NCBI GenBank assembly: GCA_022705265.1
Contig: JAKJEU010000002.1
Coordinates: forward strand, 1-32,041
DNA: 32,041 bases
DNA from: Pseudomonadota bacterium
Lineage (GTDB): Bacteria; Pseudomonadota; Alphaproteobacteria; JAKJEU01
Direction: 5' to 3'
This document shows, piece by piece, positions 1 through 29,685 of this stretch; the stretch's first letter is position 1, and each line of letters begins with the position of its first letter. The notes below the pieces were generated by a model. The model did no database searches. It saw nothing but the letters and a program-made list of their open reading frames with translations, and was not told the DNA's origin. The position numbers were made by a program, and so were the translations under genes.

Positions 1-307
1 CTCTGGTCAAAGGAACTCTTTCCATGCTTCTTTCACTTGGGTCGCCAATACAAGCGGTAAAATCGCCAAATAATATGAAAATTTTATGCCCTAATTGCCT
101 GAATTGCTCCATCAACATAAAGTTTTGAGCATGACCTAAATGAAGCGAGGTATTGGTTGGGTCAAAACCAATGTAAAAATTTAATCTTTTGTTTAATAAT
201 TGTTCGATAAAGGCCTCTTTTGAAGGAAGCACGCTATCAATTAATCCCCTTGCAAAAATTTCGTTAATTTTTTGTAATTTTTCTTCTTTTGTAAGATTAT
301 TTGTCAT
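1..307 (-). CDS. tyrS: Tyrosyl-tRNA synthetase, N-terminal fragment (the gene runs off the left edge of the window)
   Basis: My own reverse-strand translation from ATG 307-305: MTNNLTKEEKLQKINEIFARGLIDSVLPSKEAFIEQLLNKRLNFYIGFDPTNTSLHLGHAQNFMLMEQFRQLGHKIFILFGDFTACIGDPSERSMERVPLT. It has the class I HIGH motif (HLGH) in the GFDPT..SLHLGH context and the IGDPS motif typical of TyrS. An AAGGA Shine-Dalgarno lies about 9 nt upstream. It is absent from the ORF track because it is truncated. Confidence 0.85.
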   Translation of the reverse strand, partial: MTNNLTKEEKLQKINEIFARGLIDSVLPSKEAFIEQLLNKRLNFYIGFDPTNTSLHLGHAQNFMLMEQFRQLGHKIFILFGDFTACIGDPSERSMERVPLTR

Positions 308-340
308 CTTTATAAATTCCTTTTTATTCGTTAAAAATTT

Positions 341-383
341 AAAAAGGGTTTCGCTTTTTTAATCCCTTAAAGTGCGAAACCCT
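341..383 (-). terminator. Intrinsic-terminator-like hairpin in the tyrS 5' leader, also downstream of the GNAT gene
   Basis: Minus strand: AGGGTTTCGC (383-374), a 19-nt loop, then GCGAAACCCT (354-345). This is a perfect 10-bp stem followed by a T run (TTTT then AAATTTTT). It ends about 35 nt before the tyrS ATG. Confidence 0.6.
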
Positions 384-499
384 CCAACATTTTCAATCGA
401 ATGACGGACACTTTAAGGGAAAATATAGTAGTAGTATGCAAAAAGTTTATTTTGCACATTCGCTACATTTTCCAAAAAAGCACCATTCAAAGAATTCAT
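341..499 (-). promoter_or_regulatory. Candidate leader-peptide transcription attenuator for tyrS: 28-codon Tyr-rich leader ORF, 12-bp alternative helix and terminator
   Basis: Leader ORF ATG 499-497 to TAA 415-413 encodes MNSLNGAFLENVANVQNKLFAYYYYIFP, with TAC TAC TAC TAT at 436-425. A 12-bp perfect helix pairs 420-409 (TCCCTTAAAGTG, containing the leader stop codon) with 374-363, which is the loop plus first base of the terminator hairpin. A small hairpin, TGCAAAA/TTTTGCA (456-437), sits just before the Tyr codons. Confidence 0.4.
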
Positions 500-571
500 A
501 AAATCATTCATCCATAAAAATTTATCTCTTACATATAATGCTATCACTTATATTTTTTTAAGCAAGATGAA

Positions 572-1113: not shown

Positions 1114-1452
1114 CTATAACTTCTCCGAACTTAATTTTATGAATGGAAGATATTTAGTAATCGTTTCAAGCTGGGCATTGGTATATTTTTTTCGTTCTGT
1201 CCTCGCTTCGTTTTTGCAAATAAATCTTGATACTTTTATATGTTCTTTTTCAGCTTCGATATCTTTCATTCCTGTGTATTCATTATTATAAAAATAATCT
1301 ATTGCAACGCTGTGTTCCCCCATATCGCAAAGAATTATATCTCCATTCGACAAAACCCAACAATCACAACCTTCTTTTATTGTTCCTAAAAGCTCTTTTG
1401 TTGGTTTTACTTCTTTTATTCTATCTTTTTTTGTGTACGATAATATTTTCAA
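1114..1452 (-). CDS. Hypothetical protein (112 aa, lysine- and glutamate-rich, no recognisable domain)
   Basis: Clean ORF packed between eptA (19-nt gap) and the GNAT gene (8-nt gap) on the same strand. I recognise no motif in it. Confidence 0.5.
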   Translation of the reverse strand: MKILSYTKKDRIKEVKPTKELLGTIKEGCDCWVLSNGDIILCDMGEHSVAIDYFYNNEYTGMKDIEAEKEHIKVSRFICKNEARTERKKYTNAQLETITKYLPFIKLSSEKL

Positions 1453-1471: not shown

Positions 1472-3091
1472 TTACTTGGTTAAACACCCTTTAAACATAT
1501 TGAAATCCTCGTTATATATTTTGGTATCTATTTCCATAAGCCATAACAAAGAATGAAACAAGTTATCATGAGAAAATTGTCCTTTTGATGCCTTATCCTT
1601 TAAACATTCATAATTTATAAAATCGTATTTTTTCATATTATCAGACATCCATATCATCATAGGAACACTTGTTTGAGATTTAGGAGCAATTGAATAAGGC
1701 ATACCGTGCAAATATATTCCATTCTCACCCAAAGACTCTCCATGGTCAGAAACATAAATAAGACCTATTTCTAAATTATTAAACTTTTTCAATATATCTA
1801 TTGCCGAGGATACTATAAAATCCGTGTATAAAATAGTGTTATCATAAGTATTTACTATTTCTTCTTTGCTACAATTTTGAATATCAGAAGTATCACAAGA
1901 AGGAACAAATTTCTTAAATTCATCAGGATAACGATTATGATAACTTGGGCCATGACTTCCCATAGTATGAAGAACAATTACAGTATCATTTTTAATGTTT
2001 TTTATTACATCTTCTAAACCATCAAGTAAGACTTCATCCTTGCAATATGACGAAGTGCAATATTTTGGATTTCCTATTTTTACCATTTCTTCGGTTTTTA
2101 CTCTGTCACAAACACCTTTGCAACCATCATCATTTTCACGCCACAAAATGTCATATCCACTTTTCTTCATCAAATCCAAAAGATTTTCCGTATATTTGGC
2201 ATCATTAGAATCAAAATTATTTTTATTAAGATAAGAAAACATACATGGCACAGAAATAGCAGTAGCAGTACCACATGAGGAAGTATTTTTAAAAAACGCT
2301 ATGTTTTGTTTAGATAAAAGAGGATTCGTTTCTTTTTCATATCCATTAAGTGAAAAATTATCAACTCTTGCAGTTTCACCCAAAACGAATACAAAAACCG
2401 TATATACATCATCTGGATTAGGGACAAGTTTTGCTTTATCATCAAGAATTGTAAAAGCCCTTTTTTCTAAGCGAATTTTTTTATAATATTTAACCGTTCC
2501 ATGAATGTAATTAAAAACATTAATAAGCTTTTTAATTTGCTTATTGTTTCGACCAAAAGAGGCATAATCTTTATAAACAAGTGGAGCAAAAATAAAAAGA
2601 GAAAATAAAAGTATAAAAGTTGACACAATTCTGAAACTTAATTCAGACTTAAATTTTTTAAACTCTATATCAAAATAAAAAATGATAAATAATGGTAAAG
2701 CAACACTAAATAAAACAAATAAAAATAAATTCATGCTTAGCAAATCTGATGCTTCTCTTATATTTGTTTCAAACACATTTTGTATCATCGAATCATCAAT
2801 ATAAACCCCAAGTTTATACATCATGTAATTTGTAATTCCCGACAAAATTACAAACAAACTTAAAACAGGTTTATATATTTTTGGAATAATAATTAATGAA
2901 AAAAACAACCATAAAGGAACAAAAATAAAAAGAGGAAGAGATAACGCAAATAAAAAATCGTAAAAATTTGAAACTTCGACTTTTTCGGTTATGAAACGCC
3001 AAAAAGAAAGATTGAAAACAGACCCAAAATAAAAAGCCATAAAAGCAATCATGCTTGAACTTTTTATTAATTTTGATTTCTTTAAAAACAC
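1472..3091 (-). CDS. eptA: Phosphoethanolamine transferase (EptA/MCR-like lipid A PEtN transferase)
   Basis: 539 aa. The N-terminal region has about five hydrophobic helices, followed by a sulfatase-type periplasmic domain. Family-typical motifs: GETARVDNFSLNGY, SCGTATAISVPCMFS (nucleophile Thr context), HTMGSHGPSY and YVSDHGESLGENGIYLHG. Confidence 0.9.
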   Translation of the reverse strand: MFLKKSKLIKSSSMIAFMAFYFGSVFNLSFWRFITEKVEVSNFYDFLFALSLPLFIFVPLWLFFSLIIIPKIYKPVLSLFVILSGITNYMMYKLGVYIDDSMIQNVFETNIREASDLLSMNLFLFVLFSVALPLFIIFYFDIEFKKFKSELSFRIVSTFILLFSLFIFAPLVYKDYASFGRNNKQIKKLINVFNYIHGTVKYYKKIRLEKRAFTILDDKAKLVPNPDDVYTVFVFVLGETARVDNFSLNGYEKETNPLLSKQNIAFFKNTSSCGTATAISVPCMFSYLNKNNFDSNDAKYTENLLDLMKKSGYDILWRENDDGCKGVCDRVKTEEMVKIGNPKYCTSSYCKDEVLLDGLEDVIKNIKNDTVIVLHTMGSHGPSYHNRYPDEFKKFVPSCDTSDIQNCSKEEIVNTYDNTILYTDFIVSSAIDILKKFNNLEIGLIYVSDHGESLGENGIYLHGMPYSIAPKSQTSVPMMIWMSDNMKKYDFINYECLKDKASKGQFSHDNLFHSLLWLMEIDTKIYNEDFNMFKGCLTK

Positions 3092-3104
3092 TTTGAAATT
3101 ACCC

Positions 3105-3470
3105 CTATATAAAACTTAAAATCATAAAAAACCATACTCCTGCCCTAAAAACAAAAGAAAGCAAAACCAAAAGACTTCCTATATCCTTTGCTTTTTTGGA
3201 AAGCTCATGATATTCCTCAGAAATTCTATCAACCACAGTTTCAATCGCCGTATTTACAAGCTCCATAATAATTATTAATACCAAGGGAAAAATAAGAATT
3301 ATCTTTGAGATAACATCACAAGGTAAAAATAAAGCAATAACAAAGAATATCAAACAAAACAATAAATCTTGTCTGAACGCTTCTTCTGATTTGAAACTTG
3401 ATATAAAACCTGAATACGAATATTTAAACGCGTTAAAGATTCTTTTTATTCCTTTTTCTGTTGCTTTCAT
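3105..3470 (-). CDS. dgkA: Diacylglycerol kinase
   Basis: 121 aa with three TM segments. Conserved DgkA segments: AFRQDL and ELVNTAIETVVDRISEEYHELSKKAKDIGS. Confidence 0.9.
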   Translation of the reverse strand: MKATEKGIKRIFNAFKYSYSGFISSFKSEEAFRQDLLFCLIFFVIALFLPCDVISKIILIFPLVLIIIMELVNTAIETVVDRISEEYHELSKKAKDIGSLLVLLSFVFRAGVWFFMILSFI

Positions 3471-22986: not shown

Positions 22987-24390
<1,404 letters not shown>

Positions 24391-24395
24391 ACAAA

Positions 24396-24794
24396 GTGAA
24401 AATAAAACTTCAAACCCCTACTGGAAACGTTTTGGATTGCGAGGCTTTGTCAGTTGATTTCGAAGCCTTAGACGGACATTTCACAATATTGCCAAAACAT
24501 GCTGATTTTGTAAGCGTTATTGCAACTGGGATTATTTTAATTAAAACCAGCGACAACAAAGAAATTTATGTCGCAACAAATTCTGGGATTTTAAGCAAAA
24601 AAGGAAGTCAGGTAAGTATTTCTGTAAGAAACGCTATTTTAAACGAAGATATTGATATTTTAACCAACATCATTGAAACCGAATTTAAAAAATTTAACGA
24701 AGAGCGAAAAGAAACAAACACAGCCATGGCAAGGCTTGAAATCGGAATTACCAGAGGGTTTATGAAGCTTAACAAAGGTGAAATTAATGTCTAA
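24396..24794 (+). CDS. atpC: N-type ATPase epsilon subunit
   Basis: 132 aa with a GTG start. It has an epsilon-like N-terminal beta sandwich (LDGHFTILPKHADFVS) and sits directly after beta. Confidence 0.8.
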   Translation: MKIKLQTPTGNVLDCEALSVDFEALDGHFTILPKHADFVSVIATGIILIKTSDNKEIYVATNSGILSKKGSQVSISVRNAILNEDIDILTNIIETEFKKFNEERKETNTAMARLEIGITRGFMKLNKGEINV

Positions 24795-25143
24795 TAACGA
24801 AAAAAATCACGAAAGACGATTGATAAAAAAATTAATCGTAAAGGCAAGAAAAAGAGCCGAAAGAAAAAACAATAAAATCTTCCTTAACGCTGGTATTATG
24901 GGAGTTTTTGGTTGGCATATTTGTACTCCGGTTATTTTGGCGACTATTTTAGGGCTTTGGCTTGATAAAAAATTTGATATGAACGGCTCACTTTTTATTG
25001 CTTTTTTAATCATTGGTTTTATGGTCGGTGGATATAATTCATATCGCTGGGTTAAGGAAACTTTGAAATTCAAAATAAGACAAAAAGAAGAAGATAGTGT
25101 CATTTTACAAGATGAAAAACCAATTAAAACAGGTGAGGAATAA
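24787..25143 (+). CDS. atpQ: AtpQ (AtpI/AtpZ-like membrane protein of N-ATPase operons)
   Basis: Basic N-terminus followed by two TM helices (GIMGVFGWHICTPVILATILGLWLD ... LFIAFLIIGFMVGGYNSY). I prefer ATG 24787, preceded by AAAGGTGA, over the track's GTG 24778. Confidence 0.7.
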   Translation: MSNNEKNHERRLIKKLIVKARKRAERKNNKIFLNAGIMGVFGWHICTPVILATILGLWLDKKFDMNGSLFIAFLIIGFMVGGYNSYRWVKETLKFKIRQKEEDSVILQDEKPIKTGEE

Positions 25144-25437
25144 ATGGTTCAAACCATAATTACATACTTATTAATCGGTGCTTTATTAGGGGCTTTGTAC
25201 TTTTACGGACTTTGGGGTTCGTTATTACTTATGCCAAAATTTCAAAATAAAAAGGCATATCTTTTGATAACTACGATTATAAGGTTTTCAATCCTTCTTA
25301 CTTGTTTTTATTTCATCATAAAAACAAACAGCTTTGGTATAATGTTCACAATAATCGGTTTTGTTATTTCACGAATCTTTATAGTAAGAAATAAAGGGCT
25401 TAACGATTTCGTTAAAGGAGGTCAAAATAATGGTTGA
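25144..25437 (+). CDS. atpR: AtpR (N-ATPase-specific small membrane subunit)
   Basis: 97 aa with three hydrophobic segments. It has the GALYFYGLW motif in TM1 and an intramembrane Arg (R47). Its position between atpQ and the a subunit is diagnostic of N-ATPase operons. Confidence 0.7.
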   Translation: MVQTIITYLLIGALLGALYFYGLWGSLLLMPKFQNKKAYLLITTIIRFSILLTCFYFIIKTNSFGIMFTIIGFVISRIFIVRNKGLNDFVKGGQNNG

Positions 25438-26119
25438 AAATTTTGATGCGATTATAATTTTCCATATTTTTGGCTTTGGAATTAATGCGACCATTTTTTC
25501 AACATGGATTGTTATGGCAATTTTGCTTATATTGGCAAAGCTTGCAACAAAAGATTTAAGCAATTCCATCGATGGTAAAGTATCAAGACTTCAAATCGCA
25601 ATGGAAGCCATTGTAAAAGGAATTAACGACCAAATTCGTGAGGCCAGCGGAACTAATCCTATGATTTTTATGCCTATGATTGGGACTTTTTTCTTATTCA
25701 TTGGGGTTTCAAATTTATTAAGCATTATTCCATGGTTTATGCCTCCTACTGCGTCGCTTTCAACCACGGTTTCATATGCGATGTGTGTGGCAATTGCTAT
25801 GCCATATTACGGAATTAAACATGTTGGTATCGTAAGATATTTGAAAAAATATATCGAACCAACTCCGATTATGCTTCCTTTTAACATTATTGGAGACATT
25901 GCTTCGATATTCTCGCTTGCAGTTCGTCTTTATGGAAATGTGTTAAGCGGTTGTGTGATTGGCACTATATTACTTTCTCTTGCACCATATCTTATACCTT
26001 TGCCATTGCAGATTTTAGGGCTTTTAACAGGAACAATCCAAGCCTATATCTTCTCGATGCTTGCAATTATGTATATTTCGTCGATTGGTCTTGAAGAAGA
26101 AAACAAGTTAATAAGATAA
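25430..26119 (+). CDS. atpB: N-type ATPase a subunit
   Basis: 229-aa polytopic protein. The essential Arg context is LAVRLYGNVLSG. AAGGAGG Shine-Dalgarno. Confidence 0.9.
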   Translation: MVENFDAIIIFHIFGFGINATIFSTWIVMAILLILAKLATKDLSNSIDGKVSRLQIAMEAIVKGINDQIREASGTNPMIFMPMIGTFFLFIGVSNLLSIIPWFMPPTASLSTTVSYAMCVAIAMPYYGIKHVGIVRYLKKYIEPTPIMLPFNIIGDIASIFSLAVRLYGNVLSGCVIGTILLSLAPYLIPLPLQILGLLTGTIQAYIFSMLAIMYISSIGLEEENKLIR

Positions 26120-26144
26120 TTTTTAAATTTAAGGAGAAAATAAA

Positions 26145-26423
26145 ATGGATAATATCGGTTTAGTTGGTGCTGCTTCTGTTCTTGCTGCTGGTCTTGCGAT
26201 TGGTATTGGTGGTATTGGTTCTGGGGTTGGTGAAGGCCATGCTGCTAATGCTGCATTAAAAGCGATTGCACAACAACCAGACGAAGCAGGAAACATCACA
26301 AAGACATTATTCGTATGTATGGCGATGATTGAATCTACTGCTATTTATGCTTTCGTTATCACTATGATTATTTTGTTTGCAAACCCATTTTGGGACCATG
26401 TAATCAACCTTGCAGGAAAATAA
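26145..26423 (+). CDS. atpE: N-type ATPase c subunit
   Basis: 92-aa helical hairpin: GIGSGVGEGHAANAALKAIAQQPD ... MIESTAIYAFVI ... FANPF. Confidence 0.95.
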   Translation: MDNIGLVGAASVLAAGLAIGIGGIGSGVGEGHAANAALKAIAQQPDEAGNITKTLFVCMAMIESTAIYAFVITMIILFANPFWDHVINLAGK

Positions 26424-26465
26424 TTATAAATAAAACGAATATTTTAATTTAAGGACAAATTCATA

Positions 26466-27221
26466 ATGGGTATCGATTGGGTAACATTTAGCGCACAAAT
26501 TGTTAATTTAATAGTCTTAGGATGGCTTTTAAAGCGGTTTTTATATAAACCTATATTAAATGCAATTGACGCAAGGGAAAAAGCGATAAGTTCACGAGTG
26601 AGCGAAGCAAACGACCTTGCAAAAAAGGCTGAGCAAGAAATTTCTGATTTAAGGCTTAAAAAAGACAGCTTTGAAAAGGATAAATATGCAATTTTGAGCA
26701 AAGCAAAAGAAGAAGCCGAAAATACAAAAGAAAGGCTTTTAAGAGATGCTAAAATCGATGTCGAAATCCAAAAAGAAGTTTGGTTTAACGATCTTGAAAA
26801 ACAAAAACAAGCGTTTTTTGATAATGCTAATGATGCGATTATTGCAAGCTTCATAAACCTTGCAAACAAAGCTTTGACCGACCTTGCTTCCAGCAATCTT
26901 GAAACTCAAATGTTGGAAGTTTTCAAACAAAAGCTTAATAAAATTGACGCGGTTGAAAAAGAAGCTTTTGTTAAAAATGCAATCGAAGATGGCGTAATCA
27001 AAGCAGTATTTAGTTTTGATATTGACGACAAAGAAAATGTATCAAAATTTATCAAAAATTCGTTAAATCTTAAAAATGATGTCGAAATTATATTCGAAGT
27101 GGATAAAAAACTTATTTGCGGTGTTGAATTAAAGGCAAAAGAAAAATCACTTTCTTGGAGCATGAAAGAACATCTCAACAACTTTACAAAAGAACTTAAA
27201 TCTGCTTTGAACGGGGAATAA
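26466..27221 (+). CDS. atpF: N-type ATPase b subunit (elongated form)
   Basis: 251 aa. An N-terminal TM helix (FSAQIVNLIVLGWLLKRFLYKPI) is followed by a long charged coiled coil and an extra C-terminal domain of about 100 aa. Confidence 0.85.
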   Translation: MGIDWVTFSAQIVNLIVLGWLLKRFLYKPILNAIDAREKAISSRVSEANDLAKKAEQEISDLRLKKDSFEKDKYAILSKAKEEAENTKERLLRDAKIDVEIQKEVWFNDLEKQKQAFFDNANDAIIASFINLANKALTDLASSNLETQMLEVFKQKLNKIDAVEKEAFVKNAIEDGVIKAVFSFDIDDKENVSKFIKNSLNLKNDVEIIFEVDKKLICGVELKAKEKSLSWSMKEHLNNFTKELKSALNGE

Positions 27222-27225
27222 TCAA

Positions 27226-28755
27226 ATGTTAGAAGAAAAAACAAAAAAGGCTTTCGAGGCTATTAACAATGCGACAAGCAAGACAACTCAAAATGTGAAT
27301 GTTGTTGAAACTTCCGAAGTTGTGTCAGTCGGTGCTGGAATTGCTGAAATATCTGGTCTTATGAATGCAAGATTAGAAGAAATGCTTATTTTTAATGACA
27401 ATGTAACAGGAATTGTTATGTCATTAAACCGTGACAGCGTGGGTGCAGTATTTTTGGACGACCCAACCGAAATCAAATCAGGCGACAAAGTAACAAGAAC
27501 TAATCGTGTGGTTGATGTTCCTGTGGGTGAAGAACTTTTGGGTCGTGTTATAAACCCGATTGGTAAAGCTTTGGACGGACTTGGTTCTATTAACACCGCC
27601 GAAAGAAGAGGTGTTGAAAGAGAAGCATATCCAATTATGTCTCGTTCCCCAGTTGACACTCCACTTCAAACAGGTATCACAGCCGTTGACAGCTTCACTC
27701 CAATTGGAAGAGGCCAAAGAGAATTAATCGTAGGAGACAGACAAACCGGAAAAACCGCGATTGCTTTGGACACTATTATCAACCAAAAAGACAGCGGAGT
27801 AATTTCAATTTATTGTGTCATTGGGCAACGGGCTTCTGCTACTGCTAAAATCATTGCTGACCTTAAAAAACATGGTGTTATGCAAAATACGATTATCGTG
27901 GTTGCAAGCGGTGATGACCAACCTGGCATGCAATATCTTGCTCCTTATGCTGCTACTTCTATTGGTGAATATTTCATGGAAAAAGGCAAAGATGTCTTGG
28001 TCGTTTATGATGATTTGACTTGCCATGCTCGTGCATATCGTCAAATGATGTTGCTCCTTCGCCGTCCACCTGGTCGTGAAGCTTTTCCTGGCGATATTTT
28101 TTATATTCATTCAAGATTGTTGGAGCGCTCTACCCATTTAAGAGAAGAATTTGGCGGCGGTTCTTTGACTTCTTTACCAATTGTGGAAACTGAGGCTGGA
28201 AATATCTCGGCATATATTCCAACCAACATTATTTCGATTACTGATGGTCAAATTTATCTTTCCACTTCGCAATTTCAAAAAGGTATTTTGCCTGCAATTG
28301 ATACTGGTAAATCCGTTTCTCGTGTTGGTGGTGATGCTCAATTACCTGCATATTCTGCTTTGGTTGGAAGACTTAAACTCTTTTATTCTCAATTCGAAGA
28401 GCTTGAAAGCTTTGCTAAATTCGGCACTCAACTTGACAAAGAAACCGAAAGAAGACTTAACCGTGGTCGTGCAATCCGTTCGGTTATGAAACAAATTCAA
28501 TATCGTCCTATTCATGTGGTTGAACAAATCGCAATTTTGATGGCGACTAATAAGGGTTTGCTTGACAATCTTAACGACGAACAAAAGAAATTCGCAATCG
28601 AGAAAATCAGAGCTTCGGTTCGCACTGATTACCCTGAAATTGTTGATAAAATTTTGGACCGTAAAAAATTAAAAGACGACGACAAGGCAATATTGCTTGA
28701 TGGATTTAAGAAAATGCTTAAACAAGAAGGCTTGAACTTATCTTCTGAGGAATAA
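27226..28755 (+). CDS. atpA: N-type ATPase alpha subunit
   Basis: 509 aa with Walker A GDRQTGKT, plus LLLRRPPGREAFPGDIFYIHSRLLER. Confidence 0.95.
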   Translation: MLEEKTKKAFEAINNATSKTTQNVNVVETSEVVSVGAGIAEISGLMNARLEEMLIFNDNVTGIVMSLNRDSVGAVFLDDPTEIKSGDKVTRTNRVVDVPVGEELLGRVINPIGKALDGLGSINTAERRGVEREAYPIMSRSPVDTPLQTGITAVDSFTPIGRGQRELIVGDRQTGKTAIALDTIINQKDSGVISIYCVIGQRASATAKIIADLKKHGVMQNTIIVVASGDDQPGMQYLAPYAATSIGEYFMEKGKDVLVVYDDLTCHARAYRQMMLLLRRPPGREAFPGDIFYIHSRLLERSTHLREEFGGGSLTSLPIVETEAGNISAYIPTNIISITDGQIYLSTSQFQKGILPAIDTGKSVSRVGGDAQLPAYSALVGRLKLFYSQFEELESFAKFGTQLDKETERRLNRGRAIRSVMKQIQYRPIHVVEQIAILMATNKGLLDNLNDEQKKFAIEKIRASVRTDYPEIVDKILDRKKLKDDDKAILLDGFKKMLKQEGLNLSSEE

Positions 28756-28758
28756 AAA

Positions 28759-29685
28759 ATGACAATTGAGGCTTTACAAAAAAGAATAAAAACCACTAAC
28801 GAATTAAGAAACATCGTAGGCACGATGAAGTCTTTGTCGACGGCTAGTATTTTACAGTATGATGAAGCCTCAAAAGCTTTGAAAAAGTATAATGAAACCA
28901 TTATTCATGGGCTTCAAAGTGCGGTTAAAAATGGAATTTGGAATAAGCCTTATTCTTCTAAAACTCCGATTGAAAAACAAAAAATTATCGCAATTATTAT
29001 TGGTTCTGATAACGGTTTAGTGGGAAAATTTAACCGTGACATTATTTCTTGTGCCGAAAAATACTTCAAAGAAATCGGTGCGGATAAAAACAATGTTTCT
29101 TATGTCGGAATCGGTAAAAGAATTATCGGGATTTTAGAACGAAATAAATGTGAAATTGATGAAAAATATGCGGTTTCAAATTCGGTTAAAAATATATCTT
29201 TAATTGCCAATTCGGTTGTGATAAGGCTTGATGAAATTATGGCGAAAAGAAAGGCTGAAAGGGTTGTTATTTTTTATAACGAAAAGCCAAGCCGTTCTGC
29301 TCCTTTTAAAAATTCTTATAAAACTTTGCTTCCAATTGATGAGGAATTTTATCAAAATTTAAGAAAACAACCATGGAATTCAAGAGGCTTTCCTTTAATC
29401 ACAATCGAAGACAACATTTTTGTTTCAAATTTAATAAAAGAGCATATAATGATGTCACTCGTTGGTGGTATTACTGATTCCTTAAAGGCTGAACATCATA
29501 CAAGGCTTAATAATATGCAAGCTGCGGAAAAGAATATTGATGAAAATTTGGAAAAAATGAATCTTGAATATCAACAAATGAGGCAAGAAGCGATTACTTC
29601 CGAGCTTTTAGATGTTGTTAGTGGCTCTGAGGCTTTAAGAAATCGTCTTAAAAAAGAAAAAGAAGCAAGAAACAAAAAGAAATAA
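28759..29685 (+). CDS. atpG: N-type ATPase gamma subunit
   Basis: 308 aa. N-terminal helix IKTTNELRNIVGTMKSLSTASI and C-terminal helix QEAITSELLDVVSG, as in gamma subunits. Confidence 0.85.
   Translation: MTIEALQKRIKTTNELRNIVGTMKSLSTASILQYDEASKALKKYNETIIHGLQSAVKNGIWNKPYSSKTPIEKQKIIAIIIGSDNGLVGKFNRDIISCAEKYFKEIGADKNNVSYVGIGKRIIGILERNKCEIDEKYAVSNSVKNISLIANSVVIRLDEIMAKRKAERVVIFYNEKPSRSAPFKNSYKTLLPIDEEFYQNLRKQPWNSRGFPLITIEDNIFVSNLIKEHIMMSLVGGITDSLKAEHHTRLNNMQAAEKNIDENLEKMNLEYQQMRQEAITSELLDVVSGSEALRNRLKKEKEARNKKK

Follow-up and report, generated by a model that had tools for sequence, protein, structure and literature searches.

A candidate tyrosine leader-peptide attenuator upstream of tyrS in an uncultured low-GC bacterium of the Pseudomonadota

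How does a Gram-negative bacterium seen only in metagenomes adjust its tyrosyl-tRNA synthetase (TyrRS) to the supply of charged tRNA-Tyr? Aminoacyl-tRNA synthetase genes are controlled by T-boxes, mostly in Gram-positives, by protein autoregulation (thrS) or by a leader peptide (pheST). The question is raised by contig JAKJEU010000002.1 of a Pseudomonadota bacterium. Its first 32,041 nt, the whole stretch of DNA that was analysed (hereafter the window), contain on the minus strand a 264-nt spacer between a GNAT acetyltransferase gene and the synthetase gene tyrS. A preliminary description, made from the letters alone, had read this spacer as a candidate ribosome-mediated attenuator. Comparison with related loci supports that interpretation, as the run of Tyr codons, its reading frame and the paired arms are conserved in relatives, and the spacer most likely holds an attenuator of transcription, ribosome-mediated and of the leader-peptide type, through which the supply of charged tRNA-Tyr sets tyrS expression.

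Leader elements and their conservation

The GNAT open reading frame (ORF) lies at 1105-572 (stop codon 574-572; Pfam GNAT). The tyrS gene starts with the ATG at 307 and leaves the window after 102 codons; its fragment corresponds to Pfam tRNA-synt_1b, a class I synthetase of the Tyr/Trp type. Folding of the complete spacer gave a minimum free energy of -77 kcal/mol (z = -7.7), much more structured than shuffled sequence. The leader ORF, Tyr run, 12-bp arms, 10-bp stem and U tract named in the preliminary description are all present on the minus strand where it had placed them (Table 1). When the spacer was shuffled 20,000 times with dinucleotides preserved, only 0.27% of the shuffles produced an ORF having four or more Tyr within seven codons (P = 0.0027), and TAYTAYTAY occurs at just one other site in the 32 kb. 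The four Tyr codons begin 16, 13, 10 and 7 nt before the antiterminator strand. Complementarity between the 12-nt arms (420-409 and 374-363) is perfect (100%). An origin of the arms as a miniature inverted-repeat transposable element or other dispersed repeat was rejected, since no further copies of the arm sequence were found within the window.

Table 1 Features of the tyrS leader in the window (all on the minus strand)
Feature	Position	Strand	Detail	Basis
Putative promoter P1	538..565	-	-35 TTGCTT 565-560, 16-nt spacer, extended -10 TGaTAGCAT 546-538	read from sequence
Leader ORF	ATG 499 to TAA 415-413	-	28 codons + TAA, MNSLNGAFLENVANVQNKLFAYYYYIFP	ORF translation
Region 1	463..489	-	5' strand of predicted anti-antiterminator; pairs with 428-402	nascent-RNA fold up to region 3
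Small hairpin	435..458	-	GUGCAAAAU/AUUUUUGCAU, within leader ORF, directly 5' of Tyr codons	fold
Regulatory codons	425..436	-	TAC TAC TAC TAT	sequence, homologue comparison
Region 2	403..420	-	antiterminator 5' strand: UCCCUUAAAGUG 420-409, U408, extension CCGUC 407-403; holds leader stop 415-413	complementarity, folds, covariation
Region 3	363..384	-	antiterminator 3' strand: G375 + CACUUUAAGGGA 374-363, extension partners 384-380	folds, covariation
Putative intrinsic terminator	341..385	-	stem 383-374 with 354-345, 19-nt loop, tail UUUUUAAAUUUUU on to 333	fold, covariation
tyrS Shine-Dalgarno (SD) and start	305..323	-	AAGGA 323-319, ATG 307-305	sequence, Pfam

The promoter proposed in the preliminary description fared less well. 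Its hexamers are present, together with an extended -10 TG at 546-545, but the match to consensus is weak (TTGCTT 3/6, TAGCAT 4/6) and a sigma-70 scan did not call it. The predicted transcription start site (TSS) is near 531-530, and this best promoter of the window would give a 5' untranslated region of about 20-32 nt before the leader ATG. The same -35 hexamer with a TG-extended -10 layout is found in one relative described below, L045, and L046 is similar. An in-frame alternative start, ATG 511, would lengthen the leader to 32 codons. The small hairpin at 435-458 is a possible RNA polymerase pause hairpin, judging from its fold and position. A chain of overlapping mini-ORFs precedes the leader ATG on the minus strand at 496-515, in which the frame from ATG515 to TGA506-504 overlaps ATG507 and that from ATG507 to TGA498-496 overlaps ATG499; it may be chance in AT-rich sequence, or may provide a termination-reinitiation path to the leader start.

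Six tyrS loci from two clades were compared: the window, L032, L045 and L046 (window clade), and L040 and L043 (second clade). The five relatives were obtained by protein searches, followed by exact look-ups, and their TyrRS proteins are 58-70% identical to that of the window (65% for the L032 fragment, 62-63% for L040 and L043); those of L045 and L046 carry the window motif GFDPTNTSLHLGHAQNFM. Two short contigs of the same species (L030, L031) have a leader identical to that of the window. All five relatives show a common layout: an ORF of 28-30 codons (complete in L045, L046 and L040, partial in L032 and L043) ends in 3-4 Tyr codons, its stop codon lies within or just 5' of a conserved strand, CCCUUAAAGUG, the complement CACUUUAAGGG lies in a hairpin loop, a U tract follows the hairpin, and the tyrS SD stands about 20 nt beyond. 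The genes before the element are of four kinds (GNAT, peptidase, fucosyltransferase and, in L040, an unidentified ORF), and a good promoter lies between upstream gene and leader in L040, L045 and L046; the L032 and L043 sequences are truncated on the upstream side. Given four different upstream genes and a promoter before the leader, the element belongs to tyrS rather than to the upstream gene, which largely disposes of the earlier suggestion that the hairpin merely terminates the GNAT operon.

In each of the six loci the frame that contains the Tyr codons is open, and 3-4 of the last 6-9 sense codons encode Tyr (Table 2). Complete leader ORFs have 28 codons in the window, L045 and L040 and 30 in L046, and the N-terminal halves of the peptides are unrelated among loci. 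Length differences are in frame: L040 and L043 differ by 3 nt (GGCGCC vs ACC), and L045 and L032 by 21 nt (seven codons) between a common GVNS and the stop. TAT and TAC interchange at the Tyr codons among homologues. With positions counted from the first base of region 2, the Tyr codons of the six loci begin between -22 and -6; the stop codon begins at +5, within the region, in the window clade, and at -3, abutting it, in L040 and L043. By this pattern of change the leader ORF appears to behave as coding sequence. A -10 hexamer ends exactly 6 nt 5' of the leader ATG in L040 (TACAAT), L045 (TACACT) and L046 (TATTAT), the last two with an upstream TG; the leader peptides of these three are probably translated from leaderless mRNA. 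No SD stands before the leader ATG at L040:285-301, L045:2298-2313 or L046:2299-2314.

Table 2 Leader peptides and predicted energies of the two enforced folds (kcal/mol)
Locus	Leader peptide	Antiterminator enforced	Terminator enforced
Window	...KLFAYYYYIFP*	-24.5	-20.9
L032	...GVNSFYAYYYICP*	-28.2	-20.2
L045	MLNEKDIFGVNSVLGKAVAYAYVYYIRP*	-19.3	-20.9
L046	MMMMCKNTFCGDAAAGQRLGCAYYYAYMRP*	-22.4	-21.8
L040	MMIKQFMDFNRLCSLSPACVDGFYYGAY*	-25.0	-22.4
L043	...VCVRGFYYTY*	-26.7	-26.1

Competing helices and the proposed mechanism

The preliminary description had suggested looking for covariation of the paired arms in related genomes, and both helices do covary across the six loci. Terminator arms were aligned by hand, starting from the stem pair that adjoins the U tract. 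All 60 of 60 cells of the 10-bp stem are paired, and five of its ten positions have changed on both sides (A-U/U-A, G-C/C-G/U-A, U-A/U.G/C-G, C-G/U-A and C-G/G-C). Every locus has a stem of 10-12 bp followed by 5-8 U; in the window the stem lengthens to 12 pairs, including two G.U (385-374 with 354-343). The terminator loop, at 17-22 nt, is unusually large because it houses region 3, which fills the loop and overlaps the terminator 5' arm. A simple terminator scan did not pick up the window hairpin, owing to its 19-nt loop.

The 13-pair antiterminator core is 97.4% paired (alignment A5), and three of its pairs have changed on both sides: U-A, G-C and C-G all occur at the terminal position, pair 8 changes from A-U to U-A, and pair 9 from A-U through G.U to G-C. 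The covariation score of 0.169, against 0.065 in shuffles, was reached by 1/500 shuffles, and slid controls were 19-60% paired. An RNAalifold consensus independently returned the same helix.

The antiterminator extends beyond this core. In L032, L045 and L046 a helix of the CUGAU/AUCGG type is paired in 19/20 cells, with two positions changed on both sides, and in L040 and L043 the core itself enters the terminator stem by 2-3 pairs, followed by a wobble-rich extension. The constrained alternative fold of the window likewise forms U408.G375 and, beyond a 4-nt bulge, C407-G380, C406-G381, U404-A383 and C403-G384. The antiterminator consumes 5-8 of the 10-11 nt of the terminator 5' arm, and the two helices are therefore predicted to exclude each other. 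This corrects the earlier statement that they share only G374, and it largely resolves the accompanying caveat of mere steric competition or pseudoknot formation, although a pseudoknot is still sterically possible. The best energies with one or the other helix enforced are close, within a few kcal/mol at each of the six loci (Table 2), and when region 2 was barred from pairing, the terminator fold was obtained in 6/6 loci.

A third pairing, absent from the preliminary description, was found when the fold was limited to RNA made before region 3. In the window, 489-463 pair with 428-402, including GGAAAAUGUAG/CUAUAUUUUCC; L032 forms GCAAAU/AUUUGC and ACAUUUUAA/UUAAAGUGU, and L045 forms GGGGUGAAUA/UAUUCGCCCU. 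Region 2 has a mean unpaired probability of 0.34 in the window, 0.16 in L032 and 0.10 in L045. This pairing of regions 1 and 2 occupies an equivalent position with different sequence in the three loci and would complete the classical scheme in each of them.

From these elements, their conservation and covariation, their geometry and the predicted energies, we infer how leader translation, ribosome stalling and termination would be coupled, and in which direction the leader would respond. Transcription would begin just upstream of the 28-codon leader ORF. With ample Tyr-tRNA, the ribosome would reach the stop codon (415-413) and cover region 2 (420-403); region 3 would remain free, the terminator (385-343) with its U tract would form, and transcription would end about 35 nt before tyrS. 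With scarce Tyr-tRNA, the ribosome would stall 13-16 nt short of region 2, at the first Tyr codons (436-431), leaving that region exposed. Exposed region 2 would pair with region 3, the 13-bp core lying in the terminator loop and a further helix engaging the base of the terminator 5' arm; the terminator would thereby be blocked, and the polymerase would read into tyrS. As the footprint of a ribosome reaches about 12 nt beyond the first A-site base on the 3' side, a stall at the first or second Tyr codon would free region 2, and a ribosome at the stop codon would cover that region completely or almost so. Region 3 is made before the terminator 3' arm, so free region 2 could capture it first. 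In the absence of translation, region 1 (489-463) would hold region 2, and pairing of regions 1 and 2 together with the terminator (3:4) would give termination by default. Such a response would run in the physiologically sensible direction for a synthetase gene, and on sequence grounds the element has the structure of a leader-peptide transcription attenuator.

Several points weigh against this mechanism. The evidence comes from six sequences of two clades. No convincing SD precedes ATG 499 or ATG 511 in the window and the TSS is uncertain, which is a weak point. The 11-bp antiterminator core is invariant within the window clade, so covariation of this helix rests mainly on the L040/L043 clade and the terminal pair, which in L045 and L046 is mismatched (G-A). 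The terminator fold of L045 is slightly stabler than its antiterminator fold. Region 2 has a mean unpaired probability of 0.44-0.49 in L046, L040 and L043, where its pairing with region 1 is weak or not evident. Since most of the antiterminator sits in the terminator loop, an H-type pseudoknot holding both helices would be sterically possible, especially with the 8-nt linker of the window. Among the public sequencing runs searched, the window sequence was present in one, a DNA run from an anaerobic-digester metagenome, and in no RNA run.

Alternative explanations and known systems

A tyrS leader could also sense its signal without a ribosome, if a protein, tRNA-Tyr or a small ligand bound a helix or pseudoknot in a riboswitch-like or T-box-like manner and the UAY triplets served as the recognition element. 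Both arms are indeed unusually conserved in sequence, beyond pairing, an H-type pseudoknot stacking the two helices is conceivable in principle, and a sister clade has a Tyr T-box on the same gene. However, no Rfam family and no tRNA was found at gathering thresholds across the 32 kb, and at E <= 10 the first 1.2 kb gave noise only, with no T-box and no His/Leu/Thr/Trp or Leu/Phe leader. The linkers vary in length and sequence (21-34 nt between the arms, 6-11 nt 3' of region 3), so no conserved binding pocket is visible. The Tyr triplets move yet keep one open frame, a fixed ORF length and in-frame indels, and the ATG exactly 6 nt after the -10 box in L040, L045 and L046 fits translation. We consider ribosome-free sensing improbable. 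A tRNA-anticodon mimic, as in thrS-type autoregulation, was also rejected, as inspection by eye revealed no conserved GUA-containing loop.

Leader translation might instead act mainly on tyrS translation initiation or mRNA stability, through SD access or a pseudoknot, with the hairpin as a constitutive or leaky terminator. In full-length folds the tyrS SD is base-paired: in L046, L040 and L032 it pairs with CCCUU of region 2, and in the window the leader start region UUUUAUGAAUUCUUU (488-502) pairs with the SD region AAAGGAAUUUAUAAAG (308-322) on the minus strand, leaving the SD with P(unpaired) of 0.05. In addition, the sister-clade locus described below has a Tyr-rich ORF within a long hairpin that sequesters the tyrS SD. 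Against this, the SD partner differs between members, so there is no single conserved SD-sequestering helix; the hairpin with U5-U8 is a canonical intrinsic terminator kept with covariation, and the antiterminator specifically takes its 5' arm. Control at this level as the main effect is unlikely. The parts could, finally, be unrelated, an ordinary terminator or insulator of the upstream gene beside a (TAC)n repeat and an ORF that both arose by chance, as short ORFs and A/U helices are common in an AT-rich genome and the window promoter match is weak. Yet the arrangement accompanies tyrS behind four different upstream genes with a promoter between, the Tyr run, frame, stop position and both helices were kept while the flanks diverged, and the Tyr run alone is rare in shuffled spacers; a chance assembly is very unlikely.

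As a candidate leader-peptide attenuator, the element can be set beside the classical systems of this type, the Escherichia coli pheST attenuator with its pheM leader peptide and the trp, his, pheA, thr and leu attenuators. Like the pheST/trp/his type, it has a short leader ORF with many codons for the cognate amino acid, a stop codon at which a terminating ribosome would mask the antiterminator strand, alternative antiterminator and terminator helices and, by prediction in the window, L032 and L045, a pairing of regions 1 and 2 that would make termination the default; as in pheST, the target is an aminoacyl-tRNA synthetase gene. Unlike these systems, it concerns tyrosine and tyrS and has no sequence or covariance-model likeness to any Rfam leader. 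Its regulatory codons are placed between regions 1 and 2 and not within region 1, the terminator loop itself forms the conserved core of region 3, with only 5-8 nt of the 5' arm taken, and three members appear to translate the leader from leaderless mRNA. Two features of its design are unusual, the placement of region 3 in the terminator loop and the probably leaderless state of some leader ORFs. Tyrosine regulatory codons are reportedly also found in the aroR leader upstream of aroF in Corynebacterium glutamicum; that leader controls aromatic amino-acid biosynthesis, not a synthetase, and is unrelated in sequence and structure.

The tyrS T-box of the Bacillus subtilis type (RF00230) shares with the window element the gene, the signal (charging of tRNA-Tyr) and antitermination before tyrS. 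The window lacks Stem I, a specifier loop and the T-box sequence, and sensing would proceed through a translating ribosome rather than by direct tRNA binding. In the same Rfam search, locus L041 of a sister clade (TyrRS 61% identical) gave a Tyr T-box (RF00230, 95.8 bits) with a UAC specifier and a terminator. With a T-box in L041 and the proposed attenuator in the window, the same gene family would use both solutions, alternating within one TyrRS family. At L041:164-500, the T-box is followed by an upstream ORF (uORF) with a strong SD (GAGGAGG), MDSDYYYYYFDDCNLINCTNYLGGNENDKGRKV, which carries a run of five Tyr codons and overlaps the start of tyrS. This uORF lies inside a long hairpin (z = -6.6), and the U tract of the T-box terminator pairs with the tyrS SD/start region. 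L041 may represent tandem transcriptional and translational Tyr sensing; a single gene would in that case respond to uncharged tRNA as well as to the speed of translation.

In the searchable literature, the coverage of which is incomplete, we found neither a leader-peptide attenuator of tyrS nor a tyrosine-specific one at any synthetase gene. Lopatovskaya et al. 2010, which is cited by other papers, is reportedly a broad Russian-language survey of attenuators before synthetase operons, and an earlier description may exist. The element would add a missing amino acid to the attenuator repertoire. It is a compact module of about 190 nt, its antiterminator predicted to pair with the terminator loop, and is directly testable in a cell-free system. 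It may also allow better annotation of metagenome-only bacteria, as the related TyrRS family has thousands of database entries. A wider picture is conceivable but doubtful, in which Tyr leader peptides would be the standard tyrS control in a large uncultured low-GC Gram-negative group (some relatives being labelled as Alphaproteobacteria metagenome-assembled genomes, MAGs). Leaders would there be read from leaderless mRNAs, with ribosomes loading at the emerging 5' AUG, in at least two architectures: the terminator-loop attenuator, and the L041 tandem of a Tyr T-box followed by a YYYYY uORF controlling the tyrS ribosome-binding site.

Occurrence of the element and its surroundings

Among one-genome-per-species representatives, a contig search with the 102-aa fragment found TyrRS proteins at most 57% identical to that of the window, and their loci had neither a Tyr-rich upstream ORF nor a T-box. 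A Tyr-rich leader was absent from 28 more distant tyrS loci, save three chance-looking ORFs (L002, L019, L035), of which those of L019 and L035 were dismissed because they overlap a promoter or sit upstream of one. A metagenome scan for CCCTTAAAGTG-N20-50-CACTTTAAGGG returned three copies of one unrelated GC-rich palindrome, scans of viral contigs by DNA pattern and by protein gave no match, and covariance model R1, run over 238 kb, matched its own training members only. The L040-type TyrRS family is very large, with about 8,000 candidates scored, a few of them labelled "MAG: Alphaproteobacteria bacterium"; two loci of this family were inspected.

A further tyrS relative (L044:140-325, 59% identical) has a consensus promoter, TTGACT/TATAAT, and a short ORF, MKNFVFSYSYFYGVARR, that alternates Tyr and Phe. 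Small non-homologous hairpins follow this ORF, and the fold is no better than shuffles (z = -0.9). In several loci tyrS was called as two ORFs, with an overlap or short gap at varied split positions (L032:176-1347; L033:1249-2457; L036:3001-4018; L040:482-1359; L042:50-1270). These splits, which account for the short fragments returned by the first protein searches, may reflect frameshifts, assembly errors or stop-codon recoding.

Outside this region the window consists of ordinary chromosomal DNA from a Gram-negative of low GC content (about 33%), with eptA, dgkA, bamE, rodZ, fabH, plsX, xseA, prfA, hisS, ispG, lysC and an N-type ATPase operon; no leader comparable to that of tyrS lies upstream of lysC. 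A 112-aa ORF without a Pfam match lies between eptA and the GNAT gene (1114-1452, minus strand) and recurs in the same-species contigs L030 and L031. At 1472-3470, eptA (phosphoethanolamine transferase) adjoins dgkA (diacylglycerol kinase), and at 22996-29685 the N-type ("alternate") F1Fo ATPase operon has the order beta, epsilon, AtpQ-like gene 1, a, b, alpha, gamma.

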